NCBI GenBank assembly: GCA_044220725.1
Contig: JBGAQN010000001.1
Location: forward strand, 6,935 to 70,934
Direction: 5' to 3'
Length of the DNA: 64,000 bases
Source: Dermatophilaceae bacterium
Lineage (GTDB): Bacteria; Actinomycetota; Actinomycetes; Actinomycetales; Dermatophilaceae
Each line of letters begins with the position of its first letter. The stretch's first letter is position 1. This document shows positions 1-64,000 of this stretch, piece by piece. The notes below the pieces were generated by a model. It saw only the letters and a program-made list of their open reading frames with translations, had not been told where the DNA came from and made no database searches. The position numbers were made by a program, and so were the translations under genes.

Positions 1-1261
1 GGGTGTCGTGGTCGAGGTCGCACCTGGGTGCGGGGACCTGGCAACCGGGGGCACGGCATACCTGATCTCGGGTGACCACGTGGGCGCGCACCCGTGCGGG
101 CGGGACGTAACGGTGGGTCGACAGTTCGACGAGGGTGCCGGTCAGGGGCTCGGTGACCAGCCGCTGCCAGATGCTGCCAGGGGCGTGGGCCAGATCGCGG
201 GCGTGGTCAGCGTGGATCCACCCGTGGCCCGGCAGTTCGGCCAGGCCGTCGCGGGCGCCGGTGAGCACGTCGAAGGGGACGACGACCTGCACCAGGGCGG
301 CGGGCAGGTCGCCCAGGGCACCCCAGTCGATCCCGCTCGGCCGGCTCGCCGCCACACCCGCCGCCACACCCTGCGAACCCCGCTGCGTCACCTCAGCGTC
401 GGCGGTTGCATTCGCGCTCAAGCCCGCGTTCGGCTGAGCGAGTGTCCCGTTGAGCAGCAGGTCCAGGGCCACGTCGGAGCGCAATTGGGCCAGCGTCCGG
501 TTCGGGTAGCGGCCGGCCGACCGGATCCGACGGGCCATAGCATCGACCCGCTCGATCGCGGCGGCCACCCGACCACCGTCACCGGTGACCCAGAGGCACC
601 CCGACCCATCCGGACGCACTTCGGCATGCGCGTCACGTCGAGCCAACGCCTCGATCCGACCGCGGTCCGGGTCGCCGCCGCGGCGGGTCAGCTCGCGCCG
701 CAGTCGGCGGCGGCGCAGTTGGTGGGAGGGCCGTGACCCATCCCGGCCCGGCGCGGTCACCACCTGAACCACCTCGTCGGCCACCGCCGGGGCCAGGTCA
801 GCGGTGTCCTCATGCAGACCGATCACCTGCCACAGAGCCAGATCACCGACCGCCAGCAGGGCAAGGAGCGTGTCGACCCGAGCCGGGTCCGCGACCGCGA
901 GACTCAGCCGACGGCGACACTCGCTCTCCCCCAGGCCGGTCGCCGCCATCACCTCATCCACCGCACCCGAGTGGGCAACCGACGCCGACCAGTCCCGCTC
1001 ACCCGCCGTCACCACCGGCCGTCCCGGCTCGGCCAGCGCATCCAGGTATGCCGCGTGCAGCATTCGCCACGCCGGCAGGGCCGCCGCGTCGAGCCGGGAC
1101 TTCAACCGTTCGATGAGCTCGATGAGCCCCAACGCCGCAGCCGCCGTTGGGGCGCCCGCTATATCCAGATGGGTCGGCTCGAGCGCATCAAGGATGTCGC
1201 CGGGAGTATGCGGGAGGCTCAACTTGCTCCCGCATGCCGGTCTGACGACGTCCCGATTCAT
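1..1261 (-). CDS. DUF222/HNH endonuclease, 13E12-repeat family (C-terminus runs off left edge)
   Basis: Absent from the ORF track because there is no in-window stop. Hand translation of the minus strand from ATG 1261-1259 stays open to position 2: MNRDVVRPACGSKLSLPHTPGDILDALEPTHLD...ELPGHGWIHADHARDLAHAPGSIWQRLVTEPLTGTLVELSTHRYVPPARVRAHVVTRDQVCRAPGCQVPAPRCDLDHD. This is a DUF222 body followed by the start of the HNH signature. Confidence 0.8.
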   Translation of the reverse strand, partial: MNRDVVRPACGSKLSLPHTPGDILDALEPTHLDIAGAPTAAAALGLIELIERLKSRLDAAALPAWRMLHAAYLDALAEPGRPVVTAGERDWSASVAHSGAVDEVMAATGLGESECRRRLSLAVADPARVDTLLALLAVGDLALWQVIGLHEDTADLAPAVADEVVQVVTAPGRDGSRPSHQLRRRRLRRELTRRGGDPDRGRIEALARRDAHAEVRPDGSGCLWVTGDGGRVAAAIERVDAMARRIRSAGRYPNRTLAQLRSDVALDLLLNGTLAQPNAGLSANATADAEVTQRGSQGVAAGVAASRPSGIDWGALGDLPAALVQVVVPFDVLTGARDGLAELPGHGWIHADHARDLAHAPGSIWQRLVTEPLTGTLVELSTHRYVPPARVRAHVVTRDQVCRAPGCQVPAPRCDLDHDT

Positions 1262-1274
1262 GCTGATATTCTAT

Positions 1275-1290
1275 CCGAACGTACGTTCGA
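1275..1290. promoter_or_regulatory. LexA SOS box (GAAC-N4-GTTC type)
   Basis: CCGAACGTACGTTCGA. The core CGAACGTACGTTCG (1276-1289) is a perfect palindrome matching the TCGAAC-N4-GTTCGA Gram-positive/mycobacterial consensus. It lies 14-29 nt upstream of the ATG at 1261, in an AT-richer spacer. Confidence 0.6.
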
Positions 1291-1381
1291 TTACAAGGCC
1301 AATCTCGTTACAGACCAATGAAATAGCCGACAGGCTAAGGTGTCATTTCAGGCTCAGCACGACAGGCCATGGGCGAGCGCA

Positions 1382-3274
1382 TCAACGGCCCACTGGCGCA
1401 CCTCCGGGAGGCGCGCCACCACCGCTCCCGACACCGGGGACCCGGACACCGCCACCGGTGAGACCGCCCAGCCCGCCGCCGAAGCCTCCGAACCCGCCGT
1501 TGGTCGGCAGTGGTATCGAGGCGTCGCCGATGACGACGATGTCCCCGACCGACAGCCCCGAGCGGATCTGCACCTTTCCTCCGCCGACGGCCCCGATCTG
1601 GACCATCGTCGCGGTGACGACCCCACCTTTCAGTAGCCCCACCGAACCTGTGCCGGTGCCGACCCCCGTGACCGCAGAGGCCGGCACGGTCAGCGCCCCG
1701 TCGACCTTGGTGGTGACGATCGCGACGGCGGCCTTCCCTCCCGTGCCGACCGATTCCGGGGCCTCGGCGACGAGGATGTCGACGGCATTCGTGGGGGTCG
1801 ACGACCCCGTGGTCCCGGTGGACGCCGTGGGCAGTAGGGCCACCTGCGCGACGGCCCCATCCATGGCCGGAACACCGGTCACCGTGACATGTGCAGTCTG
1901 TCCGACGGCGACCGAAGGGATGCTCGCCTGGGGGACCTGGACCGTCACCTTCGCGGCGCCGGAGCCGACGACCTGTATGCCGTTCGCCACCGAGGCCGTA
2001 TCGCCGACCCCCCAGGGGATGGAACCGATCCGTCCGGCCGCCGGAGCCGTCAATGTGGCGCCGTCGAGGTTCGCGGTCGCCTTGGTGAGGGCGGCCTCGG
2101 CACTGGTGACATTGGCCCGATCAGTGATCAACCGCGCCTCCGAAACCGTGCCGGCCTGACCGCTTGCTCCCGTCTGAGCGGCCGACTGGGCCGACGATGG
2201 GGCGGCCGCCTGGGAGGCGGCTTGTGCCGCCGCTGCGGCTTGCGCCGAGGCGGTGAGCGAGGCGGCATACGAGGTCAGGGCCGACCCGGCCGAACGTTGC
2301 GCTGCGGAGAGCGCAGAAAGCGCCGCCACACACTGAGTGACCTGCGCCGTCGTCGGTCCGCTGGCTGTGGTCGACGTTGCCGGGGTCGATGTTGCCGGGG
2401 TCGACGTTGCCGGGGTCGACGACAGTAGCTCGCTTGCCGCCGTGCGCACCGTCGCGCTGACGTTGGCCGACGTCAGGCCAACTGCGCTCGGGGTCGACAG
2501 CGAAGCACTCGCGTTCGACAGCGAAGCACTCGGGCTGGTTTCCGTGGGGTTGGTTTTCGTAGGGTTGGTGCCCGTGGGGTTGGTGCCCGTGGGATTTGCC
2601 GATGTCGTTCCCAGGATCGAGGCACAGGCGGTCGACACGGCGCGTTCCGCGACCGTGACTGCGGCGAGGGCAGCCTGGGTCGACCCTTGCGTCCCAGACC
2701 CCGAGCCAGAACCTGAGCCAGAGCCAGACCCTGCTCCTGTGCCTGTGCCCGTGATCGTTGCCGAGGGGGTCGCAGTCGCGGACGAGCTACCAGCGCCGCC
2801 CGACCCGGAGCCCCCGGTGCCCGTGACAGTGCCCGTCCCACTCGTGCCCGTCCCACTCGTGCCCGAACTCGTCGTGCTCGCCGCGTCGACATCAGCTGCC
2901 AAAGTCGCTTTAGCCTGATCGAGGGTGGCTTGGGCATCGAGCACGGCTTGGCGCAGCGGCGTTGGATCGAGGGTGGCCAAAGGTTGCCCCGCCGACACCA
3001 GATCGCCTACGGCCACAGACAATCCCGCGACCGTGCCGCTGACCGGGAAGCGTGCGGTCAGCTGGCTCACTCGGGTGACCGAGCCCGTCAGCGTGAGTGT
3101 CTGTTCGATCGAACCGGTCGTCACCCGGCTCGTGCGCAGGGCCGTCGGCGCAGCGCCCCCGCCAGCGCCATTGGCGAGGTAACTCCCGCCGACGAGGACC
3201 AGGGCCATCGCCGCGAGGATCGCAGCGAGGTTCAGCCATCGCCGCCGACGAATGGTGATCACCCGGTTGCCCAC
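1382..3274 (-). CDS. HlyD-family periplasmic adaptor (membrane fusion protein) with long low-complexity inserts
   Basis: C-terminal ~630 aa of ORF 1382..3436. TM anchor RRRRWLNLAAILAAMALVLVGG, then SIEQTLTLTGSV...VSGTVAGLSVAVGDLVSAGQPLATLD and the lipoyl/beta-barrel C-terminal part. Start set at GTG 3274 (GTG 3262 is also possible). Confidence 0.75.
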   Translation of the reverse strand: MGNRVITIRRRRWLNLAAILAAMALVLVGGSYLANGAGGGAAPTALRTSRVTTGSIEQTLTLTGSVTRVSQLTARFPVSGTVAGLSVAVGDLVSAGQPLATLDPTPLRQAVLDAQATLDQAKATLAADVDAASTTSSGTSGTGTSGTGTVTGTGGSGSGGAGSSSATATPSATITGTGTGAGSGSGSGSGSGSGTQGSTQAALAAVTVAERAVSTACASILGTTSANPTGTNPTGTNPTKTNPTETSPSASLSNASASLSTPSAVGLTSANVSATVRTAASELLSSTPATSTPATSTPATSTTASGPTTAQVTQCVAALSALSAAQRSAGSALTSYAASLTASAQAAAAAQAASQAAAPSSAQSAAQTGASGQAGTVSEARLITDRANVTSAEAALTKATANLDGATLTAPAAGRIGSIPWGVGDTASVANGIQVVGSGAAKVTVQVPQASIPSVAVGQTAHVTVTGVPAMDGAVAQVALLPTASTGTTGSSTPTNAVDILVAEAPESVGTGGKAAVAIVTTKVDGALTVPASAVTGVGTGTGSVGLLKGGVVTATMVQIGAVGGGKVQIRSGLSVGDIVVIGDASIPLPTNGGFGGFGGGLGGLTGGGVRVPGVGSGGGAPPGGAPVGR

Positions 3275-3290
3275 AGGGGCTGCGACGCGG

Positions 3291-4223
3291 TCACCCACGG
3301 GGGCCGCCCTGGCTCGGGCAGACACCGTCGACCGCGTCGCGCAGAACGATCGAGGTCGCGGTGACCTTGCCGATGTCGTCGGTGGCCCCCACCGCGGTGG
3401 CGCACAACCCGACCGCAATCGCCGATGCCGGCACAACCGTGATCGTCGTCACCGTGGGCCCCGCCGACAACGTCACGGTCACCGGTGTCGTCGACGGCGC
3501 TGCCGATGCGGCCGGATCAGCCCCACCCCCACCGTCCGCGCGAACCGCACTGGCCACAATGACATCTCCGCCTCCGACGCTCATGACCAGACCCGCGACC
3601 CCGGAACCGCCCAGCCCGCGACCCACCGCGCCGGCACCCGGCGGGACCTGGTCGCCCGTGGGTCGGTCGGTCGGCGCGCCGGAGGGGCCACCACCGGCGG
3701 AGCGTATGCCGCCCCCACCGCCGAAGACATCAGCGCAGGCCCCGTTGACTGCCGCAGCGACCTGCACCGTCCCCGCGGTGACCGCCCCGGCCTGCGCGGT
3801 GGCCGCCCCCGGCCCGGCTGTGGCGCTGGCGTCGACGGCGGCACTGCGCACGACGACGCAGACGCCTGGGACAATGTCGGACACGGTGCCAGCAGCACTT
3901 CGGGTGATCCGGGTCGCGGTGGTCCAGCCCACAGCTGTCTGCTTGGTCGCCGATTGGACCTGCATTGTCGTTCCTTCGACTGCGGCAATGAGGCCACTGA
4001 CGCCCGGCATCCGAGGCGTGCCGTTCCCAGGCGCCCCGGTCCGAGTCGAGCCTGCCGCGGGGGTCGTTGCGGCCGTGGTGGATCCGCTTGCACTGCAACC
4101 CGATAGCCACGTCGTAGCCACAGCCAGCGTCGCGAATATGGCGCCCCGTCGGACGGATCCACCGATGGGGAGGCCGCGGTCGGTGAGGCGGCCGCGGACG
4201 GCGCGAAACGGCATACCGGACAT
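3291..4223 (-). CDS. secreted lipoprotein, unknown function
   Basis: Within ORF 3291..4322. ATG at 4223 gives MSGMPFRAV...AIFATLAVATTWLSGCSAS (lipobox). Gly/Ala-rich with two beta-rich modules. It sits 8 nt after the permease stop. Confidence 0.6.
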   Translation of the reverse strand: MSGMPFRAVRGRLTDRGLPIGGSVRRGAIFATLAVATTWLSGCSASGSTTAATTPAAGSTRTGAPGNGTPRMPGVSGLIAAVEGTTMQVQSATKQTAVGWTTATRITRSAAGTVSDIVPGVCVVVRSAAVDASATAGPGAATAQAGAVTAGTVQVAAAVNGACADVFGGGGGIRSAGGGPSGAPTDRPTGDQVPPGAGAVGRGLGGSGVAGLVMSVGGGDVIVASAVRADGGGGADPAASAAPSTTPVTVTLSAGPTVTTITVVPASAIAVGLCATAVGATDDIGKVTATSIVLRDAVDGVCPSQGGPRG

Positions 4224-4230
4224 AGCATTC

Positions 4231-5460
4231 CTATTCACTGCGAAGGGCTTCGATGGGGGCAAGGCGTGCGGCACGGCTGGCCGGATAGACCCCGGCGGTG
4301 ATGCCGATGACGAGGGAGACACCCAGGCCCGCTGCCGCCGCGACCGGCGACATGGCGACGGGGAAGTTCACGAGCTTGGGCAACCCGACGGCCCCGAGCC
4401 AACCCAACGCGAGTCCGGCCAAACCGCCGGCCAGACCGAGCAGGCTCGCTTCGACGAGGAACTGTCGCAGAATGACCCGCGGCGTTGCGCCGAGCGCCTT
4501 GCGCAGGCCGATCTCACGGATCCGCTCGGTCACCGAGACGAGCATGATGTTCATGACCCCAATGCCGCCGACGAGCAACGAGATCGCGGCGATGCTCGAC
4601 AGGAGCACGGTGAGAATGCGGGTGGTGCTCGTGGCGGTCTCGACGATCGCTTGCTGACTGCTGACGGTGAAGTCCTGCGAGGACAGCGTCACCCCGTGAG
4701 CCGAAAGCAGGGCGTTGGTCGTCTCCTGGTATGCCGCGGAGAGGCTTGCCGAGTCCTTGGCTTCGATGTAGATCGTCGAGACGCTGCGCGGATTGACGCT
4801 AGTCGACAGTCGCGCGGCATACGTCGACTGGGGGATGACGACGAGATCGTCTTGGTCGCCGCCGGTCGTCGAACCTTCGGCATTGAGGACGCCGATGACG
4901 GTGACGTTCTGACCGCCGACGGTGATGGTCTGGCCGATCGGGTTGGCCAAGGACAGCAGTTGGGTAGCGGTCGTCTGCCCGAGGACGGCGACGGCGCTCT
5001 CCGAGGTCAACTCGTCGGCCGTGAAGAACCGGCCCTGGCTGACGGTGCGCGCCCGCACCGACGCCCAATCGGGAGTCGTGGCAACAACATTCGCGGTCCA
5101 GGTGGTTGTGCCCGCGACGAGGCTGAGCGATCCGCCCGACACCGGCGCGACCCGAGCGATATCAGGGGCCACGGTTGGATCGGCGAGCATCGCGGCATCG
5201 TCCATCGTGAGCGTGGTCGCCGAACCGCGGCCGCCGCGGACCCCGGAGGCATTCGTCGAACTGCCCGGCGAGACGATGAGCAGGTTCGAACCGAGTTTGT
5301 TGATCTGTTCGGTGACCTGCTGTTGGGCACCCTGCCCAAGCCCGACGGTGAGCATCACCGCGGCGATCCCGATGAGGATTCCGAGCATGGTCAGCGCGGA
5401 CCGCAGGCGACGGGTCCGCAGGGCGTCGTATGCCGTGCGCAGCGTCTCCAGCCACGTCAC
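4231..5460 (-). CDS. MacB-type ABC transporter permease (FtsX-like with periplasmic domain)
   Basis: ORF 4231..5460: RSALTMLGILIGIAAVMLTVGLGQGAQQQVTEQINKLGSNLLIVSPG...REIGLRKALGATPRVILRQFLVEA. Confidence 0.9.
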   Translation of the reverse strand: MTWLETLRTAYDALRTRRLRSALTMLGILIGIAAVMLTVGLGQGAQQQVTEQINKLGSNLLIVSPGSSTNASGVRGGRGSATTLTMDDAAMLADPTVAPDIARVAPVSGGSLSLVAGTTTWTANVVATTPDWASVRARTVSQGRFFTADELTSESAVAVLGQTTATQLLSLANPIGQTITVGGQNVTVIGVLNAEGSTTGGDQDDLVVIPQSTYAARLSTSVNPRSVSTIYIEAKDSASLSAAYQETTNALLSAHGVTLSSQDFTVSSQQAIVETATSTTRILTVLLSSIAAISLLVGGIGVMNIMLVSVTERIREIGLRKALGATPRVILRQFLVEASLLGLAGGLAGLALGWLGAVGLPKLVNFPVAMSPVAAAAGLGVSLVIGITAGVYPASRAARLAPIEALRSE

Positions 5461-6239: not shown

Positions 6240-7459
6240 GGCACGACTCCCGGCGGCGGCCCCTGGAGATTTCCCTGGCCTCCCGGGACCGCTCCGCCGC
6301 CGGTTGCCCCTGCTCCGGCTCCGCTCCCCCGGGTGCGAGTGCCGGTGCTTTGATTGCCCACTCCGCCCACCCCGCCAACACCGGTGACGAGCACCTGGTC
6401 TCCGTCGAGCAGGCCGCTGAGGATCTGCGTGGCGGCGCCCTGGACCATGCCGACCTGCACCGCGGTCGTCACGTTCGCGCCGTCGACGACCTTGGTCACC
6501 ACGGTCTTGCCCGACTCGGTGCGAATGGCCGAGGTCGGCACGGTGAGTGCGTCGGCGACCTCCTTGACGATGATCGCGACGGTGGCCGACGACCCGGCAT
6601 ACAGGCCCTTCGGCGAGCCGGTCACCGCGATGGTGACGGGGAAGGTGGCCACCCCACTCGTCGAGGTCGCGATCACCCCGATGGTCGCGACGGTGCCGAA
6701 GACGAGGGTGCGTGAACCCGATGGCGTGATCTGGGCCTGCATGCCGGGCTTGAGCAGCGGCAGGTCGGCGGAGGTGACCGAGGTCGAGACGAGCCAGGCA
6801 TCGGTGGTGATGACGACGATGGCGGCACTCGATGACGACGACCAGCCGGACCCCGAACCGGCCGCCGAAGCACCAGTCCCACCGGCCGAGGAGGTCCCTC
6901 CGCCGGTGACGGTGTCGCCGGCAGCGACATTGACGATGGCGACGGTGCCGGCCACGGGGCTGGTGAGCACCGCGTTGTCCAGGGTGGCTTGAGCGGTCGT
7001 CAACTTGGCCCGCGCTGCGGTCAGTTGGGACGTGGCCGCGGTGAGTTGGCTGGTGGTCGTCGTGCTGCTGGCTTTGATCGTCGTGAGATTGGCCTGGGCG
7101 GAGGAGACGTTGGCGGCGGCCAGGTCGACAGCCGTGCGCAGATCCGTCGGGTCGATGGCAGCGACTCGCTGGCCGACGGTGACGACATCGCCGACCTTCA
7201 CCTCGACGCTCTTGACCGTGCCGGACGAAGCGAACCGGAGGTTGGACTGGATTTTGGGGTTGATCGTGCCCGTGGCGCTGACCGTCTGGCTGAGGGTCTG
7301 CACAGACGCGGACACGACGACCGAGGGCGCAACCGGCCCGGTCAACGAGGTTGTCCGGGACCTGATCCACCAGCCGGCGCCGCCGACCGCAAGGAGCGTC
7401 ACGACCAGACCGACGACCAGCCTGCGCCGACCCGCGGACGTGAAGGAGAAGCTCGCCAT
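6236..7459 (-). CDS. HlyD-family periplasmic adaptor (membrane fusion protein)
   Basis: ORF 6236..7552. ATG 7459 gives MASFSFTSAGRRRLVVGLVVTLLAVGG (TM), then TGTINPKIQSNLRFASSGTVKSVEVKVGDVVTVGQRVAAID and coiled-coil-like TSQLTAATSQLTAARAKL. Confidence 0.8.
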   Translation of the reverse strand: MASFSFTSAGRRRLVVGLVVTLLAVGGAGWWIRSRTTSLTGPVAPSVVVSASVQTLSQTVSATGTINPKIQSNLRFASSGTVKSVEVKVGDVVTVGQRVAAIDPTDLRTAVDLAAANVSSAQANLTTIKASSTTTTSQLTAATSQLTAARAKLTTAQATLDNAVLTSPVAGTVAIVNVAAGDTVTGGGTSSAGGTGASAAGSGSGWSSSSSAAIVVITTDAWLVSTSVTSADLPLLKPGMQAQITPSGSRTLVFGTVATIGVIATSTSGVATFPVTIAVTGSPKGLYAGSSATVAIIVKEVADALTVPTSAIRTESGKTVVTKVVDGANVTTAVQVGMVQGAATQILSGLLDGDQVLVTGVGGVGGVGNQSTGTRTRGSGAGAGATGGGAVPGGQGNLQGPPPGVVP

Positions 7460-10202: not shown

Positions 10203-10249
10203 ACCGAGTCCTCCTGGGTGACGGCACCGGGGCTGGCGGGCCAGGCCCG

Positions 10250-16645: not shown

Positions 16646-16675
16646 GCACGGCCCCCTCCTCCCGCACCCCCCGGC

Positions 16676-16760: not shown

Positions 16761-18365
<1,605 letters not shown>

Positions 18366-53347: not shown

Positions 53348-53467
53348 GGCCTGACGCTAACAGCCGGTATGCCGTGCGCCTCACCATCCGCGCGGAGGGA
53401 GCGGAGGGAGGCACCCGGCATACCGGCTGCTGGGGCGATCGGCCCGCGCTGGGGCGATCGGCCCGCG

Positions 53468-53507
53468 CTGGGCGTCGGTGTGGTCGAGCGCGGGACGCTG
53501 CCCCCGT
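53468..53507 (-). terminator. 10-bp perfect hairpin downstream of 53537 stop
   Basis: GTGTGGTCGA (53468-53477) pairs with TCGACCACAC (53498-53507). Confidence 0.4.
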
Positions 53508-54104: not shown

Positions 54105-54317
54105 CTACTCGGGGAGGTCAACGAGCCCCAGGTGCAGGTGCCGCATCATCTCGATCAGGCCAAGGACGGTGGTCCCGCCCGGCCCTTGGTATGCCGCCTG
54201 CCCCGTCTCGGGGTGGACCACCACCGACCGTGGTTCCCCGTGCCGAGGGATCACGTGTGCAGATCTCACATCAGGTGAAAGATTTGCACGCATGGGCGAT
54301 AGGGCGACCTCGCTCAT
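54105..54317 (-). pseudogene. degenerate Phd/YefM-like antitoxin remnant
   Basis: ORF 54105..54317: SPMRANLSPDV...VIPRHGEPRSVVVHPE resembles the EARxNLSxL...ITRHGKPVAVLV core but is shortened. The first 20 codons use A/T-ending codons, and there is no room for a partner toxin. Confidence 0.35.
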
Positions 54318-57463: not shown

Positions 57464-60400
57464 ATGAGAGCCGACGTTGCCGCACTGGGCGCCCGGCTGC
57501 GGCTGATCACCGACGCACAGGTGCGCGGGGTCGCCGGCCCGACGACATTCAGCCGCGGCCAGGCGTATGCCGCCCAGCGCCGGGTCACCGGGCTGACCAT
57601 CGAAGACCAGTGGAGGCTGACCGCCTCGGTGCGGGGGACGGGCCGGACCTACCTCACCCAGGTCGAGCTCTTCCTCGTTCGGGGCGAACTGACCTGGACG
57701 GGTGAATGCAGCTGCCCGATGGGCGTCGACTGTAAGCACTCGGTGGCGGTGCTCCTGGTCGCTCGGGGGATCTACGGGCTGGCGCACGGGGCAGGTGATC
57801 CCACTGGGGCGGTTCCGGTCCCGGTGCCCGCCTGGGAGCGGATGGTCCGGGATGTCGTCGGCGACTCGGCGGCGACGCAGTATTCCGCGGTCGGCCTGCT
57901 CTTCGAAGTCCAACGGTCGGCCCCGCATCGGTTCGGCGCGCCGGAGCCGCCCGACGCGCGGATCGCCATCCGGCCCGTCGTGCCGGGCAAGACCGGGTGG
58001 GTGCGGACCGGCTTGACCTGGAGCAACCTCGACTACCTCACGCCCTATGGGCCGTTGAAGATCGACCCGGCCCACCAAGGCGCGCTGCGCAGTCTCGTCG
58101 CGGCGGCCCGACAGCCCTATGGCTATCGCCCCGTCGCCGACCGGATCGACCTGGCCGGCCTCGGGCGGGGCTGGCTGCTCGGGCTCCGGGAGTGTCGCCG
58201 GGCGGGCATCCGCCTGCTCACCGATGTCAAGAACAGTGGCGAGGTGGTGCTTGCGCAGGAGTCGGCTCGGGTTGCCCTGCACCTGGCCCGGGCGGGCGAC
58301 GGGGGTGTGGTCGTGCATCCGACCGTCGTCCCTCCGCCCGAGATCGTCGCCGCAGGCGTGCCCTGGCTGCCAATCGGGAATCCTCCCGCCGGGATGTGGC
58401 TGATGTCCGGCCACGATCTCGTGCTGGCCGCGTTCGACACGCCAGTCGACGTCCCCACCCAACGCTGGATGGCCCAGGGCGGCTCGCGGGTGCCGGTCGC
58501 CGACGTCCCGCGCTTCTTCGCCGGACTCCTGCCGGCGTTGGCCAAGCGATTCGAGGTCTCGTCCCCAGATGGGAGCGTGGAGATTCCCTCGATCGGGGCG
58601 CCGAGGGTATTGCTGCGGCTGACCCACGACCCGGGCCTGCGGATCTCGCTCGGGTGGTCGTTCACGTATGCCGTGGGGTCCGATCGCGTGGAGGTCCCCG
58701 TCGGCCCGGGCGGTGACCCGTCGCTGCGCGACCGAACCGCCGAGCAGGCCATCGTCGCGAGCCTCGACGACCTGGATCGACTCCCGGGGCTGCGGGCGCA
58801 GGGGCCCACGGGGGAGTGGTCCCTGCCCCCTCGACCGGGGCTCGAAGGCACCCCGATGCTGCGCTTCCTCAACCTCGTGCTGCCCCGGCTCGAGGACCAC
58901 CCCGACGTCGACGTCGAGATCCTCGGCGAGCCAGTCCCCTATGCCGAGGCTGAGGACGCCCCCGTCGTGCGCCTGGCCGTCACCGAGTCGAGCGATTCCA
59001 CCGACTGGTTCGACCTCGATGTGCAGGTCCGGGTCGGGGAGCAGGATGTCCCGATCCGCAGCCTGGTCACCGCGCTGACTCTCGGTGAGGAGCACGTCAT
59101 CCTGCCCAGCGGCACGTGGTTCCGGGTCGACCGGCCCGAGTTGGTCGAGTTGCGTCGGCTCATCGACGAGGCCCGGGCCATGTCCGATGATCCCAAGGGG
59201 CCGCTGCGCCTGTCGGCCTATCAGGCCGACCTCTGGGCCGAGCTTGAGGAGCTCGGCATCGTCCACGAGCAGAGCGAGCGATGGCGCACGCTCGTCGCCG
59301 GGTTGGCGGGGGCCGCCGAGGGAGCGCCGCTCGAACCGGTCGAGGCCCCTGTCGGGTTGGCGGCGCAGTTGCGGCACTACCAGCACAGTGGCTATGAGTG
59401 GCTGACCTTCCTGCACCGCACCGGGCTCGGCGGGATCCTCGCCGACGACATGGGCCTGGGCAAGACCATGCAGACCCTGGCGATGATCCTGCGCGCGGTC
59501 CAGGACCGCGTGGTTGCAGGCTCAGAGAGTCGGTCCGGCACGGGCTCCGGCGACTCCCGTGCCTCGGTTGGACCGGGACGGGATGTGCCAGGTCCGGCTG
59601 GGATGGACCCTGCCTCCGCGGGAGGTGAACCCGTGGCGGCAGGTGAGATCGGCACGGGAGGTGAGATCGGCACGGGAGGTGAGCGGGCGGCATACCCCCC
59701 GTTCCTCGTCGTCGCCCCCACGTCGGTGCTGCCCGTCTGGCTCGCGGAAGCGGCGCGGTTCGCGCCATCGCTGCGGGTGGTCGCGCTCGGCGAGACGACC
59801 CGGCGCCGCGGCGACTCGATCGCCGCGACGGTCGCGGGGGCCGACCTGGTCGTGACGACGTATGCCGTGTTCCGGATCGACGCCGAAGCGTTCCGGGAGT
59901 GCGCGTGGTCGGGGCTCATCCTCGACGAGGCGCAGTTCGTCAAGAACCATCAGTCTCAGGTCTATCAATGCGCCCGCCTGCTGCCCGCGCCGACCAAGCT
60001 CGCCATCACCGGCACGCCCATGGAAAACAACCTCATGGAGCTGTGGGCGCTGCTGTCGATCGTCGCGCCCGGGCTGTTCCCGCGGCCGAGTGCCTTCCAG
60101 GAGCACTTCCGGCGGCCCATCGAGAGCGGCGCGGAGCCGGAGCGGCTCGACACGCTGCGCCGGCGCATCAGGCCGGTCATGCTGCGCCGGACCAAGGAGG
60201 CGGTCGCCAGCGAGCTGCCGCCCAAGCAGGAGCAGGTCATCGAGGTGACGCTGTCACCCAAGCATCGACGTATCTATGACCGGGTGCTCGCTCATGAACG
60301 GCAGCGGATCCTCGGGTTGCTCGATGACGCGCAGCGCAACCGGATCGCCATCCTTCGCTCGCTCACCCGGATGCGGCGACTGTGCCTCGATCCGGTGCTC

Positions 60401-60928
60401 GACGACCCGGCCCACGCGGGGATCGGATCGGCCAAGGTCGACGCTCTGCTGGACTTGCTGGCGCCCGTGCTCGCCGAGGGGCATCAGGCGCTGGTGTTCA
60501 GTCAGTTCACCGGGTTTCTTGCGACCGTCCGGCAGCGGCTGGACGCCGAGGGGATCTCCTATGCCTACCTCGACGGGCGGACCCGCAAACGCGACGAGGC
60601 GATCGCCTCGTTCCGGTCGGGCGAGAGGTCGCTGTTCCTGGTGTCGCTCAAGGCCGGCGGCTTTGGGCTGACCCTCACCGAGGCGGACTACGTCTTCCTG
60701 CTCGACCCCTGGTGGAACCCGGCCACCGAAGCTCAGGCCATCGACCGCACCCACCGGATCGGACAGGACAAGCACGTCTTCGTCTATCGGCTGGTCGCCG
60801 CCGACACCATCGAGGACAAGGTGCTCGCGTTGCAGGCCCGCAAACGCGAGTTGTTCGCTCGGGTCGTCGACGAGGGGGCCCTGGCCAGCGGCGTGCTGTC
60901 CGCTGACGACATCCGCGGTCTGCTCTGA
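57464..60928 (+). CDS. helZ: SWIM zinc-finger + SNF2-family helicase
   Basis: ORF 57464..60928: SWIM CSCPMGVDCKHSVAV; LRHYQHSGYEWL, ILADDMGLGKT, LILDEAQFVKN, helicase-C QAIDRTHRIGQ. Confidence 0.9.
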   Translation: MRADVAALGARLRLITDAQVRGVAGPTTFSRGQAYAAQRRVTGLTIEDQWRLTASVRGTGRTYLTQVELFLVRGELTWTGECSCPMGVDCKHSVAVLLVARGIYGLAHGAGDPTGAVPVPVPAWERMVRDVVGDSAATQYSAVGLLFEVQRSAPHRFGAPEPPDARIAIRPVVPGKTGWVRTGLTWSNLDYLTPYGPLKIDPAHQGALRSLVAAARQPYGYRPVADRIDLAGLGRGWLLGLRECRRAGIRLLTDVKNSGEVVLAQESARVALHLARAGDGGVVVHPTVVPPPEIVAAGVPWLPIGNPPAGMWLMSGHDLVLAAFDTPVDVPTQRWMAQGGSRVPVADVPRFFAGLLPALAKRFEVSSPDGSVEIPSIGAPRVLLRLTHDPGLRISLGWSFTYAVGSDRVEVPVGPGGDPSLRDRTAEQAIVASLDDLDRLPGLRAQGPTGEWSLPPRPGLEGTPMLRFLNLVLPRLEDHPDVDVEILGEPVPYAEAEDAPVVRLAVTESSDSTDWFDLDVQVRVGEQDVPIRSLVTALTLGEEHVILPSGTWFRVDRPELVELRRLIDEARAMSDDPKGPLRLSAYQADLWAELEELGIVHEQSERWRTLVAGLAGAAEGAPLEPVEAPVGLAAQLRHYQHSGYEWLTFLHRTGLGGILADDMGLGKTMQTLAMILRAVQDRVVAGSESRSGTGSGDSRASVGPGRDVPGPAGMDPASAGGEPVAAGEIGTGGEIGTGGERAAYPPFLVVAPTSVLPVWLAEAARFAPSLRVVALGETTRRRGDSIAATVAGADLVVTTYAVFRIDAEAFRECAWSGLILDEAQFVKNHQSQVYQCARLLPAPTKLAITGTPMENNLMELWALLSIVAPGLFPRPSAFQEHFRRPIESGAEPERLDTLRRRIRPVMLRRTKEAVASELPPKQEQVIEVTLSPKHRRIYDRVLAHERQRILGLLDDAQRNRIAILRSLTRMRRLCLDPVLDDPAHAGIGSAKVDALLDLLAPVLAEGHQALVFSQFTGFLATVRQRLDAEGISYAYLDGRTRKRDEAIASFRSGERSLFLVSLKAGGFGLTLTEADYVFLLDPWWNPATEAQAIDRTHRIGQDKHVFVYRLVAADTIEDKVLALQARKRELFARVVDEGALASGVLSADDIRGLL

Positions 60929-61002
60929 CGACCCCGCGGCAGTCCGCGTTGCGCCTCCCCAAGGACGACCAAGTCTCTCGCGCCTCCCTGTCGTGACGTT
61001 GA

Positions 61003-61180
61003 GCGAAAACATCAGCCAGTGTGAGGAATTCGGGCCCCAGGGCCAATGGCTGACCCGAAAACACCCGCGAGTGTGAGGAATTCGGGCCCCAAGGCCAATG
61101 GCTGACCCGAAAACACCCGTGAGTGTGAGGAATTCGGGCACCAGGGGGGCTCGGGATCAACCCGAGGCCCAGGCTCACAC
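61003..61180 (+). repeat. 52-bp tandem repeat, GTGTGAGGAATTCGGG family (~2.7 units + inverted terminus)
   Basis: Units start at 61019, 61071 and 61123 (exact 52-bp spacing). Unit: GTGTGAGGAATTCGGGCCCCAGGGCCAATGGCTGACCCGAAAACACCCGCGA. CTCACAC is inverted at ~61174. Confidence 0.85.
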
Positions 61181-61182
61181 TG

Positions 61183-62187
61183 TCAGGGCACCGACCGGTA
61201 GAACTCCCCGATGATCTCCACCGGCTGGAAGCCCAACGCCTCGTTGACCGCGACCATCGGGAGGTTCGCACCGTTGTTGCCGGTGAAGATCTCCCGCACC
61301 TTCGGCCGAGCCATCTGCAGCGCGGCCAGGTTGGCCAGCTTGAGACCCAGGCCCAAGCGTCGTCCCCGGTGCTCACCGACGACGAAGGTGCCCGACTGCA
61401 TCGCCCTCGTCATTGCCCCGGTCACGAAGAGGTCGGTGTACCCCACCACTGCACCAGTCGCCACCCCCCGGGCGATCGACGTGAAGCGCAACCGGCCAGA
61501 CTGACGGTCCAATGCGGCATACCCCCGAAGCCGCTCGGGAGTGAGCGACTCCTCCTCCCACTCAATCTCGCCGGTCGGTGCCTCAACCTCGACCCGATTG
61601 ATGCACCGACACAGCGGGGCCAGCAGCTCGTCGGGGATCTCGGTGAACGTGTCGATCCGATAGTCGCCCTCGTATGCCGCCCGCGCCTGTTCGAGCAAGG
61701 CCGCCGCCCGAGCGGGTGGCACCGGCAACGCCAATCGACGGTTGATGTCAACGCTGCCCAGCCGGAACCCGTGACGTTCGGCAAACCGTCGGTTCGGGTG
61801 GTCTTCGGATCGACTCTCGGGATAACGCGCCGAGCCCACGATCCGGGTGCGACCGAGGCTGGCGCAGTGGGCCAGCACCGCCGGGATGGCCGCCGCACCG
61901 GCGCCACGCCGGCGATGGTCGGGATGAACGTCCAGCTGCATCCACATGGTGTCGACGTTGTCGGTCAGCCCCATCCACAGGGTGACCACGCCAATGAGCT
62001 CGTCAGCGTCGAAGACACCGAGCAGGTCGTAGCGCTCCCCCGGGTCGTCGTGTCGCAGATCGGAGATCGCTGACTCTCGCGGTTGCGGCGCGAAGAACGG
62101 GCGCTCGAAGCTCTGGCTGGCGGTGACGACGGCATACACCCGGGCCATGAGGTCATCGTCGGCCTTGTCGATCTCCCGAATGTCCAC
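61183..62187 (-). CDS. two-domain GNAT N-acetyltransferase
   Basis: Within ORF 61183..62334. GTG 62187 (VDIREIDKADDDL...). QLDVHPDHRRRGAGAA and VVGEHRGRRLGLGLK acetyl-CoA motifs. Confidence 0.75.
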   Translation of the reverse strand: MDIREIDKADDDLMARVYAVVTASQSFERPFFAPQPRESAISDLRHDDPGERYDLLGVFDADELIGVVTLWMGLTDNVDTMWMQLDVHPDHRRRGAGAAAIPAVLAHCASLGRTRIVGSARYPESRSEDHPNRRFAERHGFRLGSVDINRRLALPVPPARAAALLEQARAAYEGDYRIDTFTEIPDELLAPLCRCINRVEVEAPTGEIEWEEESLTPERLRGYAALDRQSGRLRFTSIARGVATGAVVGYTDLFVTGAMTRAMQSGTFVVGEHRGRRLGLGLKLANLAALQMARPKVREIFTGNNGANLPMVAVNEALGFQPVEIIGEFYRSVP

Positions 62188-62240
62188 GGGCCTCAGGCTA
62201 GCCCGGGGGCCGAGTCGCTCCCCGCTTGCGTGCCGGGCTT

Positions 62241-62957
62241 CTAGACGGTCGCGGCACGGCACGCGGCATACGAACCTGCCGTGCTGACCACCACGAGACC
62301 CGAGCCGACAGCGACTCCAGCCCACGCCCCCCATTGAGCGAGCAACGACCCGACGGCCGCGCGCTGCCAGACCCCGAACGCGATGGCGACCAGCACAGCG
62401 AGGATCACACCGATCGCCAACAGTGCAGTTGCCTTCGGGCCGAACGCGCGGAACACCGTCCCGAACGCAGCTCCGGTCGTCGTGGCGAGCAGCGCCAGGA
62501 CGAACGTGACGCAGAAGGTGAGGGCGATGTTGCCGTCACCGAGGACGGCGACATCCAGCGCCCGGGCACCGATGAACCAATGATTGGTCAGCCGTTCCAG
62601 ACCGAGAAGTAGGACGGCGGCAATCCCCGTGACCAGCGACGTCAGCACGAAGCCGGCCGTCGTGCCGAGCCAGAAGTGCCGACGCGTCGACCCGAACGCC
62701 AAGGCCATGGCGAAGTTGCGGGTCGTAGCCAACACCCCGAGCGAGACGAGGAACCCAGGGATGCACCACACCGCACCGGAGTTCAACCGGAAGCCGTCCT
62801 GAGCCTGAGCCGAGAGCGGCAGACCCGTGGAGATGCCCATGATGATGGCGATGAGGATGCTGAACACGACCATGAGGCCCAGGGTGTAGACCGGCACGCC
62901 GAGCACGTACTGCCGGTTGGCCAGGTAAAGCCGCAGCGAACGGCGAATGTAGGTCAT
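62241..62957 (-). CDS. polytopic membrane protein, probable ABC-2 permease partner
   Basis: ORF 62241..62957, six predicted TM segments. The start overlaps the upstream ATPase stop by 4 nt. Confidence 0.6.
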   Translation of the reverse strand: MTYIRRSLRLYLANRQYVLGVPVYTLGLMVVFSILIAIIMGISTGLPLSAQAQDGFRLNSGAVWCIPGFLVSLGVLATTRNFAMALAFGSTRRHFWLGTTAGFVLTSLVTGIAAVLLLGLERLTNHWFIGARALDVAVLGDGNIALTFCVTFVLALLATTTGAAFGTVFRAFGPKATALLAIGVILAVLVAIAFGVWQRAAVGSLLAQWGAWAGVAVGSGLVVVSTAGSYAACRAATV

Positions 62958-64000
62958 CGGGAGCTCACTCCTGCGTCAGTCACGGCGTCGTCTGGGTCAG
63001 CGCTGTCTGGGTCAGCGTCGTGTGGGTCAGCGTCGTGTGGGTCAGCGTCGTCTGGGTCGGCGCCGTCTGGGTCGGCGCCGCGGGCGGTCGGGGGCGTGGG
63101 CCGGCTGACCCCCGGGTGGGGCGCGAGCTCGGCCGTCCCCCCATGCAGGCCGATGGCGGCGACGAGGTCTTGGAGCCCGACCGGCTCGACCGTCACCCGC
63201 GACGACTCGGCGTGAGCCCGCTCCTGGGGCGTCAGGTCTCCGCGGATCACCGCTGACACGATGCCGCCCAACCGGCGCGTTGCAAGCGTCTCCCGGCCTC
63301 GGCCGAGCGCCCGCACATCCGACTCGAAACCCCTTGCCACAAAAGCCATTTGCCGCGCCCGGTCAACATCGGCTTGTAGCACGATTCGACCCGAGTCCAG
63401 GACGAGGATCTCCTCCATGAGCTCCGCCGCCTCGTCGACCAAATGGGTCGACATGACGAAAGTGCGCGGGGCAGCCAACGCCGCGCCGACCGGAAGGTGC
63501 TCGTTGGCGCGGTCGTGGCTCGCGGCATACTCGGCGAGCAACTCGTCGTAGAAGATGCCGCGCGCGGTCGCGTCCAGTCCCAGATAGGGCTCGTCCAGGA
63601 AGGTGTATGCCGCTCCGCTGGCGAGCCCGATGGTGATCGCCAAGGCCGATCGCTGCCCACGCGAGAGTTTGTTGGAGCGAGTGCGCCAAGGGATGCGGAA
63701 CCGCCTCACGAGTCGGGTCGCGATCTCGAGGTCCCACGTGGGGTAGAAGGCTGGCATGACGGCGAGGATGTCGGCGACCGAGAAGGCGTCGTTGTAGGCC
63801 TGGTCCTCGCGGACAAAGCAAAGCCGCGCCAAGGTTGGGGCGTGCTCGAGCGGCTCGTGGCCGTCGATCCGGATAGAGCCCCCGTTGCGGAAGGTGTGCC
63901 CGGCGATGCAGGCCAACAGGGTGGTCTTGCCGGTGCCATTGGCGCCGAGCAGCCCATAGATGCGACCGGGGCTAAGCCTTGCCGAGACGTCCAGCAGCAC
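62954..64000 (-). CDS. ABC transporter ATP-binding protein with acidic Asp-Pro repeat tail (N-terminus off right edge)
   Basis: ORF 62954..64000: GANGTGKTT, LSRGQRSAL, FLDEPYLGLD. The C-terminus is ADPDGADPDDADPHDADPHDADPDSADPDD. Confidence 0.85.
   Translation of the reverse strand: MLLDVSARLSPGRIYGLLGANGTGKTTLLACIAGHTFRNGGSIRIDGHEPLEHAPTLARLCFVREDQAYNDAFSVADILAVMPAFYPTWDLEIATRLVRRFRIPWRTRSNKLSRGQRSALAITIGLASGAAYTFLDEPYLGLDATARGIFYDELLAEYAASHDRANEHLPVGAALAAPRTFVMSTHLVDEAAELMEEILVLDSGRIVLQADVDRARQMAFVARGFESDVRALGRGRETLATRRLGGIVSAVIRGDLTPQERAHAESSRVTVEPVGLQDLVAAIGLHGGTAELAPHPGVSRPTPPTARGADPDGADPDDADPHDADPHDADPDSADPDDAVTDAGVSSR

Follow-up and report, generated by a model that had tools for sequence, protein, structure and literature searches.

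Chi sites are 5-8 nt long, are read as single-stranded DNA and, in the known cases, are over-represented only a few-fold; to our knowledge, all characterized Chi sites are skewed toward the leading strand. We know of no Chi to which AdnAB, the actinobacterial end-processing enzyme, responds, nor of sequence-specific DNA uptake in any Gram-positive bacterium or actinobacterium. Uptake sequences (USS) combine abundance, equal representation on both strands, presence in genes as well as spacers, and use of inexpensive reading frames (PMC2817400, PMC1939737), and competent Haemophilus influenzae cells import USS-bearing DNA regardless of its orientation (PMC1939737). Here, we describe an exact, non-palindromic 8-mer, CGGCATAC, that behaves like a self-DNA signal yet matches no described one. 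It was found in a window of 64,000 nt (the whole stretch of DNA analyzed) from the chromosome of a Dermatophilaceae bacterium near 'Ca. Phosphoribacter'. A literature search returned no published description of the word, in keeping with the initial annotation, which had not recognized it.

The initial annotation, read by eye, had tallied about 115 copies (about 60 and 55 in the two spellings); the exact count is 116, with 60 plus-strand copies (CGGCATAC) and 56 minus-strand copies (spelled GTATGCCG on the plus strand). CGGCATAC is the most frequent 8-mer of the window, with a mean spacing of 553 bp for both orientations and ∼1.1 kb per orientation, and its density is ∼1 per kb on each strand in this chromosome and its relatives. 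Only a few copies had been thought attributable to chance, and the null models agree: a dinucleotide shuffle predicts 1.2 copies, Markov models of order 1 and 3 predict 1.0 and 5.8, and 1.24 Mb of other actinobacterial DNA (66-73% GC) contains 1.66 per 64 kb. The enrichment is thus 70-100-fold, and it persists under amino-acid-preserving shuffles. A fifth-order Markov model trained on the window predicts 81 copies. Of the 129 GGCATA hexamers in the window, 116 are part of the word; the null is therefore circular, and its 81 copies do not refute the excess. All 116 GGCATAC heptamers are directly preceded by C, and the flanks proposed earlier (R-core-S) are borne out by R at −1 in 105 of 116 copies and C or G at +1 in 87 of 116; beyond the 8-nt core, information is present only at positions −1 to +1. 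The longest copy-free gaps, 13857-15430 and 59867-61515, are those noted before, and the positions checked (54, 7661, 8692, 10197, 10356, and 13513) were accurate, although Pfam gives no support for the "HNH gene" label at 54-61.

Copies lacking the particular features discussed below lie on the plus strand at 54-61, 2263-2270, 4815-4822, 6595-6602, 11430-11437, 11829-11836, 13850-13857, 17219-17226, 17736-17743, 20162-20169, 21279-21286, 23404-23411, 30940-30947, 32002-32009, 33881-33888, 35443-35450, 35958-35965, 36220-36227, 36730-36737, 37914-37921, 39413-39420, 40717-40724, 41317-41324, 43492-43499, 43999-44006, 45223-45230, 47397-47404, 48844-48851, 52568-52575, 54428-54435, 55472-55479, 55601-55608, 56213-56220, 59688-59695, 61515-61522, 62130-62137, 62264-62271, and 63523-63530, and on the minus strand at 1046-1053, 1975-1982, 3704-3711, 4729-4736, 5428-5435, 7661-7668, 8455-8462, 9699-9706, 11019-11026, 12117-12124, 17882-17889, 20022-20029, 27565-27572, 29623-29630, 30636-30643, 32306-32313, 32898-32905, 34635-34642, 37553-37560, 39024-39031, 39089-39096, 41261-41268, 42460-42467, 44822-44829, 47599-47606, 48515-48522, 49922-49929, 52084-52091, 54189-54196, 55129-55136, 55982-55989, 56064-56071, 57565-57572, 58666-58673, 59860-59867, 61672-61679, and 63605-63612.

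The excess is a DNA-level signal and neither a peptide nor a codon effect, as had been claimed. Shuffling synonymous codons inside genes leaves 8.5 ± 2.7 copies compared with the 100 observed there, and non-coding DNA is ∼2-fold denser in the word than coding DNA. The motif had been said to occur in every reading frame; all six are indeed used, but very unevenly, with the two cheapest strongly preferred. Once gene models are revised, 73 of the 96 copies in coding sequence fall into xCG-GCA-TAC (Ala-Tyr; for example, 10356-10363, plus strand) and xxG-TAT-GCC-G (Tyr-Ala), which together account for 76% of coding copies. Other frames include xxC-GGC-ATA-C at 8692-8699 (plus strand; Gly-Ile with the rare ATA codon), and two plus-strand copies hold the ATG start of minus-strand genes: 10197-10204 for a short-chain dehydrogenase (9333-10202) and 24088-24095 for a DUF1015 protein (22864-24093). 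Most sites where the word is synonymously possible carry it (97-99 of ∼120, ∼82%), and the compatible sites that lack it do not lie significantly nearer to same-strand copies (P = 0.2). The word is imposed against codon preference. Outgroups use other codons for the same peptides, and the proteome itself is slightly bent, with Ala-Tyr and Tyr-Ala dipeptides at 1.4 times the outgroup level. Across the window, copies are placed without regard to the direction of genes or to where in a gene they fall.

NadE illustrates this recoding. Its universally conserved peptide LAAYVYAAA carries two copies, one by synonymous recoding at 25133-25140 (plus strand, GCG-GCA-TAC) and one at 25143-25150 (minus strand, GTG-TAT-GCC-GCT), and is recoded only in this lineage. 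In at least one case, an amino acid was changed to create a copy: at 26288-26295 (plus strand), the residue before the site is Val in outgroups but Thr or Pro (xCG) here, which identifies the change as non-synonymous. A fourth NadE copy, at 26429-26436 (minus strand), reads CGT-ATG-CCG (Arg-Met-Pro).

Copies are preferentially conserved, and their near-matches are scarce. Sites are conserved 2.6-3 times more often than average 8-mers in three comparisons (22 of 28, 9 of 23, and 10 of 22). Locus L082 shares 16108-16115, 19136-19143, and 22621-22628 (minus strand), 19523-19530 (plus strand), and the intergenic copies 24179-24186 (minus strand) and 24257-24264 (plus strand); locus L083 shares 12420-12427 and 43808-43815 (minus strand) and 42739-42746 (plus strand); and 23892-23899 (plus strand) is conserved in both. 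One-mismatch forms are depleted (27 vs. 56 expected, P = 1.4e-5), most severely CGGCGTAC (0 vs. 10.8 expected), which is one CpG transition (complementary strand) away from the core.

Each orientation, taken separately, is evenly spaced. Gap coefficients of variation are 0.58 and 0.47 compared with ∼0.98 under random placement (under-dispersion against shuffled strand labels, P < 0.0002), and otherwise the plus and minus sets show almost no dependence on one another. Counts in 2-kb bins have a variance/mean of 0.53, and the longest gap measures 1655 bp, where the null gives a median of 2786 bp. Neighboring copies switch strand in 81 of 115 pairs in the window (P = 1.4e-5), in 47 of 61 pairs in independent relatives (P = 2.7e-5), and in 134 of 200 pairs at gaps over 150 bp (P = 1.7e-6). 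These two regularities, even spacing per orientation and strand alternation, are new here, and they are what orientation-dependent reading, needed from both directions, predicts. The 60:56 balance, which the initial annotation took as evidence against a polar signal, does not carry that conclusion, since the orientations are evenly spaced and neighbors alternate.

Pairs within 150 bp are mostly inverted (23 of 28). Such pairs lie at 13513-13520 (plus strand) and 13527-13534 (minus strand), with a 6-nt spacer; 15430-15437 (plus) and 15448-15455 (minus); 28566-28573 (plus) and 28600-28607 (minus); 32745-32752 (minus) and 32786-32793 (plus), both conserved in L083; and 50870-50877 (minus) and 50884-50891 (plus). 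Further minus/plus pairs are intergenic, at 36368-36375/36456-36463, 53367-53374/53416-53423, and 57314-57321/57423-57430, or lie at a divergent gene junction, at 45988-45995/46060-46067. The spacer copies reported earlier (24088, 24179, 24257, 45988, 46060, 53367, 53416, 57314, and 57423) were all correctly placed; single intergenic copies occur at 4209-4216, 27478-27485, and 31693-31700 (plus strand) and at 32602-32609 and 33652-33659 (minus strand). A role as terminators was ruled out for the close inverted pairs, because none precedes a T-run. Folded as RNA, the 53367/53416 pair closes a long hairpin of −50 kcal/mol, likewise without a T-run.

The enrichment extends beyond the window: related MAGs and isolates of Intrasporangium, Terrabacter, and Knoellia carry the word at 0.4-1.6 per kb, and independent Illumina-type assemblies show the same copies as the window. 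Flanks are genus specific (A-core-G in Terrabacter, AG-core-G in Intrasporangium, and R-core-C/G in the window's clade). The word is absent as an enriched motif from Arsenicicoccus and 75 other actinobacterial loci. Tetrasphaera phage TJE1 (host T. jenkinsii) has it at chance level, and one relative carries an inserted 3-kb gene (n = 1 gene) that lacks any copy and has lower GC3.

An ordinary cause is barely credible. That 76% of coding copies encode two dipeptides might suggest codon or peptide bias, which is refuted by the synonymous shuffle and by the different outgroup codons; a mobile repeat (REP/MITE) is refuted by the lack of conservation beyond ±1 of the core and by copies at orthologous positions in conserved genes; and an assembly or basecalling artifact is refuted by the independent assemblies and cultured isolates. 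It is also very unlikely, contrary to one earlier suggestion, that the word is a functionless by-product of repair or modification, in which near-matches are converted by some biased correction, such as that of a methyltransferase coupled to Vsr-like short-patch repair. The loss of one-mismatch forms, above all CGGCGTAC, and the occurrence of the word independently of frame and in spacers fit such a process. However, the depleted forms would require G-to-A, C-to-A, C-to-T, and other conversions at positions 4-8, running toward A/T in a 70% GC genome, so no single mismatch-specific enzyme suffices. Moreover, a neutral bias predicts neither even per-strand spacing nor alternation, the 116 copies outnumber the reservoir of one-step neighbors (∼56 per 64 kb), and the phage of the family is unaffected. 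The linked orphan methyltransferase, Vsr, or competence gene that the initial annotation proposed to look for does not occur in the 64-kb window, whose genes are ordinary housekeeping only and include no candidate reader of CGGCATAC. Improbable, but less so, is a binding site for an abundant nucleoid-associated or chromosome-organizing protein, with selection keeping one site per strand per kb so that the protein spaces, bridges, or orients the DNA, as has also been proposed for cyanobacterial HIP1. The very even spacing, the alternation, the independence from gene orientation and position, and site conservation beyond neutral, argued likewise for HIP1 (PMC5861425), would all suit it. Nevertheless, a redundant array should impose weak selection per site, yet ∼82% of possible sites carry the word and near-matches have been removed; architectural proteins seldom insist on an exact 8-mer to the exclusion of every variant; the copy-free insert in the same chromosome is unexplained unless its insertion was very recent; and no candidate protein was identified.

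A possible, if rather doubtful, explanation is an uptake or transfer sequence of the DUS/USS type. A competence surface receptor, or in actinomycetes a conjugative FtsK/TraB-like translocase that could be equivalent, would preferentially import CGGCATAC-bearing DNA, and recombination of imported conspecific DNA would drive the word to high density. In likening the word to USS, DUS, and HIP1, the initial annotation chose comparators that share its abundance, its symmetry between strands, its preference for certain frames, and its lineage specificity. The degree of enrichment, the equal strand numbers, the presence in genes and more densely in spacers, and the least costly frames all match uptake sequences, as do the raised Ala-Tyr and Tyr-Ala frequencies. 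One core with genus-specific flanks recalls DUS dialects, close copies are mostly inverted, the inserted gene and the phage lack the enrichment, and a member of the same order, Micrococcus luteus, is naturally transformable (PMC8467076). Against it, the same scripts find neighbor orientation of the canonical Haemophilus-type USS to be random (218 of 439, 0.50, vs. 0.67 here), and USS show a 2-fold excess of one-mismatch forms (299 vs. 142 expected), opposite to the 2-fold deficit here (27 vs. 56-60). The orientation independence of H. influenzae uptake, the absence of competence genes from the window, and the lack of a terminator role for the close inverted pairs also speak against it.

Our tentative preference is for a lineage-specific self-DNA signal, read on one strand or in one direction, that serves recombination or DNA exchange. 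An enzyme that tracks along DNA or binds one strand would recognize the exact 8-mer, the likeliest reader being a helicase-nuclease that processes double-strand ends, and recognition may end degradation of the DNA and commit it to RecA-dependent recombination. Both a break and an incoming homologous fragment would present two ends read in opposite directions, so that every stretch of chromosome would need, close by on each strand, a copy in the correct orientation. Copy-bearing DNA would survive and recombine preferentially, and perfect copies would consequently spread and be restored by gene conversion. We infer that a USS-like molecular drive and selection may act together, the drive converting near-matches and recoding Ala-Tyr and Tyr-Ala dipeptides in defiance of codon preference, with newly acquired DNA and phage left free of the word. 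As an exact 8-mer, CGGCATAC falls within the Chi size class. In contrast to the leading-strand skew of Chi, its orientations are near parity both in the window (60:56) and across ten loci (127:131), and its 70-100-fold enrichment far exceeds the few-fold over-representation of Chi. The word may work like Chi or like an uptake sequence while being a demonstrable member of neither family.

An exact search of the window returned 116 copies of CGGCATAC, 60 on the + strand and 56 on the − strand, which makes it the most frequent 8-mer of this stretch; it is also the top 8-mer of the related loci L082, L207, and L210. The initial annotation had claimed such an over-representation, and the coordinates it listed were all correct, with 116 exact copies found against 1.2–1.7 expected. 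Dinucleotide-preserving shuffles of the window contained 1.2 copies (maximum 6), a first-order Markov model predicted 1.0, and 1.24 Mb of other actinobacterial DNA of 66–73% GC contained the word at a rate of 1.66 copies per 64 kb. A third-order model gave 5.8 copies. Of the two nulls that the initial annotation had named as possible refutations, shuffling synonymous codons within genes, with every protein and the codon usage of each gene held constant, gave 8.5 ± 2.7 (maximum 18) compared with 100 observed in genes. The other, a fifth-order model trained on the window, predicted 81 copies, but we dropped it as a refutation because it is circular, 116 of the 129 GGCATA hexamers coming from CGGCATAC itself. 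The excess at the DNA level is ∼70- to 100-fold, and it is still ∼12-fold with proteins and codon usage fixed, both of which are themselves inflated by the motif. The word is sharply bounded: a C precedes GGCATAC in 116 of 116 heptamers, and information outside the core is found only at −1 (G 67, A 38) and, weakly, at +1 (C 61, G 26). GC content is uniform across the window at ∼69–70%.

The octamer is neither an artefact nor a local feature. In a Logan assembly made independently from run SRR14932659, the NadE region is identical, and its 16 copies occupy the same positions; a second run has 6 copies in 2.2 kb. Confinement to this stretch, which the initial annotation had considered, does not hold, since the word is dense at loci of relatives too. 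Densities (octamers per kb) were 1.81 in the window, 1.55 in the ENA contig L082 (NadE 91%), 1.36 in L209/L210 (SNF2 78%), 1.27 in the Dermatophilaceae MAG L207, 1.09 in GCA_963852755 (L083), 0.75 in Knoellia flava TL1, 0.63 in Intrasporangium oryzae NRRL B-24470, and 0.41–0.47 in four Terrabacter genomes at two unrelated loci. Outgroups were taken from a NadE-based scan of a genome collection, in which the matches listed were all relatives at ≤71% identity. Arsenicicoccus piscis had no octamer in 22 kb, an unidentified actinobacterium (L212) had one in 23 kb, and 75 loci from Mycobacterium, Streptomyces, Micropruina, Nocardioides, and Pseudonocardia had about 0.03 per kb. One locus otherwise grouped with the outgroups (L034, uncultured Actinomycetota MFD09671.bin.1.159) had 4 octamers in 22 kb with ∼0.6 expected; these copies could be due to chance or could reflect a distant lineage with weak enrichment. 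The core is constant across genera, and the favored flanks depend on the genus: R-core-C/G in the clade of the window, A-core-G in Terrabacter (22/29, and 8/11 at the second locus), and AG-core-G in Intrasporangium. We also considered CGGCAAGGG as a second “dialect” in A. piscis and rejected it, as it is really part of a 15-bp tandem repeat within one gene (L205 7158–7330), in which 12 units contain GGCAAGGG.

With corrected gene models, 83% of the copies lie inside genes, the 96 coding copies amounting to 1.66 per kb and the 20 non-coding or gene-boundary copies to 3.2 per kb. The claim that the octamer occurs in every frame held in that all six were seen, but their use is strongly uneven: Tyr-Ala-x (frame xxG-TAT-GCC-G) accounts for 40 copies and [A/T/P]-Ala-Tyr (xCG-GCA-TAC) for 33, followed by x-Met-Pro (xGT-ATG-CCG) with 10, Gly-Ile (xxC-GGC-ATA-C) with 8, Arg-His-Thr (CGG-CAT-ACx) with 4, and Val-Cys-Arg (GTA-TGC-CGx) with 1. 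These statistics were nearly the same after revision of the gene models at 1382–3436, 13400–13850, and 37843–40389. Coding copies showed no sense/antisense bias (46 vs. 52) and were distributed uniformly along genes; their number per gene scales with gene length and is under-dispersed (chi-square/df 0.48). Some 120 peptide sites could encode CGGCATAC synonymously, and 97–99 of them are occupied; the unfilled ones are mostly Gly-Ile, which would require the rare ATA codon. Unused compatible sites did not lie significantly nearer to a same-strand copy (248 vs. 311 bp, P = 0.2).

This occupancy is visible in codon usage and in individual peptides. Copies of CGGCATAC contain 9 of the 13 ATA, 40 of the 145 TAT, and 34 of the 204 GCA codons, and 41% of all Tyr residues in the window are encoded by TAT, compared with 7–14% in relatives without high density. 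Ala-Tyr and Tyr-Ala dipeptides together are 1.4-fold commoner than in outgroups, and more than half of them are recoded by the octamer. The NadE peptide LAAYVYAAA is invariant across Actinobacteria and is coded outside the clade, including in Terrabacter, by GCC/GCG-TAC-GTC-TAC-GCC/GCG; the window, L082, and L083 instead use GCG-GCA-TAC-GTG-TAT-GCC-GCT, creating two octamers. At the copy at 26288, the outgroup Arg-Val-Ala-Tyr has become Arg-Thr/Pro-Ala-Tyr, an amino acid having been swapped so that xCG is supplied. The octamer is imposed on the DNA and not on the proteins, and the earlier judgment that peptide or codon bias is insufficient is borne out by the synonymous shuffle and by the recoded NadE peptide.

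Copies are kept between relatives. In L082 (82% nucleotide identity), 22 of 28 aligned copies were intact (79%) vs. 30% of all 8-mers (P = 2e-7); the corresponding values were 9 of 23 (39%) vs. 14% in L083 (75% identity, P = 0.003) and 10 of 22 (45%) vs. 15% in L207 (P = 7e-4). Lineage-specific octamers exist as well, and there is, therefore, turnover. Near-matches are depleted: the window has 27 one-mismatch forms of CGGCATAC where outgroup rates predict 55.9 (P = 1.4e-5), including none of CGGCGTAC (10.8 expected), one of CGGCCTAC (4.2 expected), and none of CGGCACAC (3.8 expected).

Orientation is patterned. Adjacent octamers in the window switch strand in 81 of 115 cases (P = 1.4e-5), and alternation was also seen in L083, L207, and L206 combined (47/61, P = 2.7e-5) and in L209 (21/31). 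Among neighbors ≤150 bp apart, 23 of 28 pairs are inverted, both inverted arrangements being equally common. The coefficient of variation (CV) of gaps is 0.58 on the + strand and 0.47 on the − strand, compared with ∼0.98 for randomly placed copies; permuting the strand labels among the actual positions gives 0.83 (P < 0.0002). Per-strand gaps have a median of ∼1.1 kb and a maximum of 2.4–2.6 kb. Regularity drops when the strands are pooled (CV 0.77) and, therefore, belongs to each strand. The + and − sets are otherwise near-independent (35% vs. 25% within 150 bp, P = 0.03).

As for foreign DNA, the 49-kb Tetrasphaera phage TJE1 has 2 octamers, which is chance level, and a scan of viral contigs for inverted motif pairs gave chance-like matches of 33–66% GC with no motif-rich phage among the matches listed. 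At L209 16423–19389, a 3-kb subtilase (Peptidase_S8) gene that is missing at that place in the synteny of the window has a GC3 of 0.82 vs. ∼0.89 in its neighbors; this candidate recent acquisition, a single example, has no octamer over a 3.3-kb gap despite four Ala-Tyr/Tyr-Ala dipeptides.

The window itself carries ordinary chromosomal genes: NAD synthetase, glutamate dehydrogenase, alpha-amylase, ABC/MacB/HlyD transporters, a LigD primase-polymerase domain, a fatty-acid desaturase, a GcvT-type oxidase, and a PIN toxin. Its NadE shares 91% identity with proteins of “Candidatus Phosphoribacter baldrii” and of Dermatophilaceae MAGs, which places the source among Dermatophilaceae actinobacteria of the Phosphoribacter/Tetrasphaera-like group. 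tRNA and Rfam scans of the window gave no matches, and no competence gene was seen in it. The gene at 2–1222 (minus strand), initially called HNH, matched no Pfam family at thresholds up to E = 0.1; the neighboring ORF at 1382–3436 is HlyD-like. A CHAT-domain protein with a CBM9 domain (34252–36342) and an SNF2/SWIM helicase of 1154 aa (57464–60928) may be defense-related, and L207 has two CHAT proteins side by side, one with a TCAD7 domain; no link between the CHAT or SNF2/SWIM genes and the octamer was evident.

The longest gap between octamers, 13857–15430, spans the PIN-toxin pair, and gaps of this size are not unusual in themselves. At 14465–14514 and 14505–15157, a GGTCAGGG repeat of 6.5 copies adjoins the 3′ end of the PIN-domain (VapC-like) toxin gene, which has a small partner ORF upstream; the entire toxin–antitoxin region lacks the octamer. 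Other repeats were noted. The ∼52-bp GTTGGCGATTCGACGGTGCTTAGCGCCCAACGCGTCAAGAGGTCCGTCGAGC flanks the glutamate dehydrogenase gene at 16646–16760 and 18117–18365 (tandem part 18234–18351), with 2.3 tandem copies upstream, partial copies downstream, and the octamer in neither array. A distinct 52-bp unit (2.8 copies, 92% identity) occupies 61004–61146, in the spacer that follows the gene for the SNF2 helicase, within one of the two longest octamer-free stretches. A 31-bp tandem repeat (27311–27427, 3.8 copies) lies between convergent genes just upstream of the copy at 27478, and an in-frame 9-bp repeat, GGGTCCGGC, present in about 11 copies at 24811–24907 inside the NAD synthetase gene, probably explains the NadE length of 711 aa vs. 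679–690 aa in relatives. At 53367–53423, an octamer pair closes a long and very stable inverted repeat in a spacer (−50 kcal/mol when folded as RNA), followed by a 19-bp tandem repeat at 53429–53472; it has no T-run and is, therefore, not a classical terminator. We rejected terminators as a general role for close inverted pairs, as a T-run follows none and one pair lies inside NadE.

These observations show that the signal belongs to the DNA, is specific to a clade, is actively maintained, and has an orientation that matters. The filling of nearly all available sites, the removal of near-matches, the recoding against codon preference, and the lack of copies in new DNA appear to be hallmarks of a drive coupled to recombination, which would resemble the one proposed for uptake sequences. 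A signal that is read directionally yet met from both sides would need to be evenly spaced on each strand. One such reader could be a Chi-like regulator of double-strand-end processing, which would fit because a correctly oriented copy has to be reached from each end of a break or of an incoming fragment. We, therefore, tentatively favor a polar self-DNA signal that is Chi-like in its working and amplified by a USS-like drive, although our confidence in this particular combination is limited. In Actinobacteria, NucS/EndoMS cuts both strands at mismatches; speculatively, the resulting two-ended breaks everywhere behind the fork would explain why replichore skew is lacking.

That the word is a genuine specificity sequence for uptake or transfer is possible but somewhat doubtful. 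Micrococcus luteus, a member of the order, is transformable (PMC8467076), and uptake sequences and the octamer have much in common. As a control, we ran the same scripts on 120 Pasteurellaceae-type metagenome loci (0.9 Mb, 727 USS cores), comparing only gaps >150 bp because these loci had been picked via a close inverted pair. Opposite-strand neighbors made up 218 of 439 USS pairs (0.50) vs. 134 of 200 for CGGCATAC (0.67, P = 1.7e-6), and one-mismatch forms were in 2-fold excess for USS (299 vs. 142 expected) and in 2-fold deficit for CGGCATAC (27 vs. 56–60). In Haemophilus influenzae, there are 764 one-mismatch forms per 1471 perfect copies, and USS orientation is without effect on uptake (PMC1939737). 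We think a nucleoid-protein site, as proposed for HIP1, unlikely. We regard a by-product of repair or modification as improbable; the changes from near-match to CGGCATAC are of several chemical kinds and run towards A/T in a 70% GC genome, and the linked methyltransferase or Vsr-like gene that the initial annotation had proposed to look for was not seen among the window genes. Trivial causes are next to negligible beside the null models and the independent assembly. The remaining probability belongs to mechanisms outside these readings.

More broadly, we consider it on balance probable that an actinobacterial clade has an undescribed genome-wide signaling system based on an exact 8-nt word, placed ∼1 per kb per strand, alternating, and read directionally. 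If so, and if it controls uptake, transfer, or end-processing, it would be the first uptake sequence-like system outside Proteobacteria or the first actinobacterial Chi-like signal; either way, its spacing rule, strand-symmetric and even on each strand, would be one shown by no known signal. To our knowledge, very few short words of such abundance have been described in genomes (USS, DUS, HIP1, and Chi). Each opened a field, be it uptake specificity, self/non-self discrimination in recombination, or molecular drive, and the octamer is as extreme, yet in a different phylum. Octamers as frequent as HIP1 occur in very few bacterial genomes, according to Elhai (PMC3497702). The motif had not been recognized initially, and our full-text literature searches, which covered the word itself, over-represented actinobacterial octamers, and competence within the family, found nothing relevant. 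Its hosts include cultured, tractable Terrabacter, Intrasporangium, and Knoellia as well as dominant phosphate-removing bacteria of wastewater plants. Per-strand regularity and alternation, lacking in the other known words, offer a direct handle on the directionality of the reader. It becomes testable whether sequence-specific uptake of DNA, or a Chi-like signal, exists in Actinobacteria and, given the Ala-Tyr/Tyr-Ala recoding, how strong a recombination-coupled drive can be. In practice, the octamer is a sharp marker of native vs. acquired DNA, useful in activated-sludge metagenomics for binning and for assigning hosts.

Among known systems, Chi (E. coli GCTGGTGG and the AddAB/RecBCD Chi of other bacteria) is likewise a short asymmetric word (5–8 nt) among the most frequent oligomers of its genome, mostly inside genes and with a proposed role as a self-DNA marker, and orientation-dependent reading of this type would account for the octamer’s regular per-strand spacing. 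Unlike Chi, whose strand skew is co-oriented with replication, the octamer has no strand skew at any sampled locus (60:56 in 64 kb, 127:131 over ten loci), and its enrichment is >10 times that of any known Chi. We know of no Chi for the actinobacterial AdnAB. FtsK KOPS, SpoIIIE SRS, and the TraB recognition sequences (TRS) of Streptomyces are also asymmetric words of 8 bp that a DNA pump reads directionally, and TraB-type pumps are actinomycete-specific. KOPS and SRS, however, are >80% skewed towards dif at the terminus, whereas the octamer is unskewed, and TRS are grouped in plasmid clt loci and, unlike the octamer, are not hyper-abundant in the chromosome. REP and MITE elements are longer, largely intergenic copied units; the octamer carries no information beyond ±1, and its copies in genes lie at orthologous codons and were created by point changes. 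HIP1 (GCGATCGC, cyanobacteria) is, like our word, a hyper-abundant octamer, 15- to 300-fold over-represented, with up to >1 copy per gene and sites kept between species beyond neutral expectation (PMC5861425, PMC4390886). The octamer shares this site conservation; HIP1, however, is a palindrome containing methyltransferase sites, whereas CGGCATAC is not its own reverse complement, so that its strand and orientation are defined, and both are patterned.

The Pasteurellaceae USS (AAGTGCGGT core) and the Neisseriaceae DUS (GCCGTCTGAA, with dialects) resemble the octamer in being short exact words at ∼1 per kb, ∼100-fold or more over expectation and equal on both strands, in genes in the frames that cost least and at higher density in spacers, evenly spaced, rare in foreign DNA, and arising by point substitutions in pre-existing sequence. 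They also share family-wide conservation with lineage-specific flank dialects, seen here across the Phosphoribacter-like clade, Intrasporangium, Terrabacter, and Knoellia. In contrast, the octamer resides in a high-GC Gram-positive family without known competence, reaches 1.8 per kb (twice the density of USS/DUS), and has neither extended AT-rich flanks nor terminator pairs. Its neighbors alternate strand with each strand evenly spaced, where USS neighbors are random, and its one-mismatch variants are depleted, where those of USS are enriched as graded receptor specificity would have it. The octamer, therefore, cannot be filed in any known family: it stands outside Chi and KOPS because it has no skew, outside HIP1 because it is not a palindrome, outside REP/MITE because it has no extended unit, and apart from USS/DUS because neighbor orientation and the one-mismatch spectrum differ. 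There is a real chance that it is a new kind among the hyper-abundant short genomic signals.
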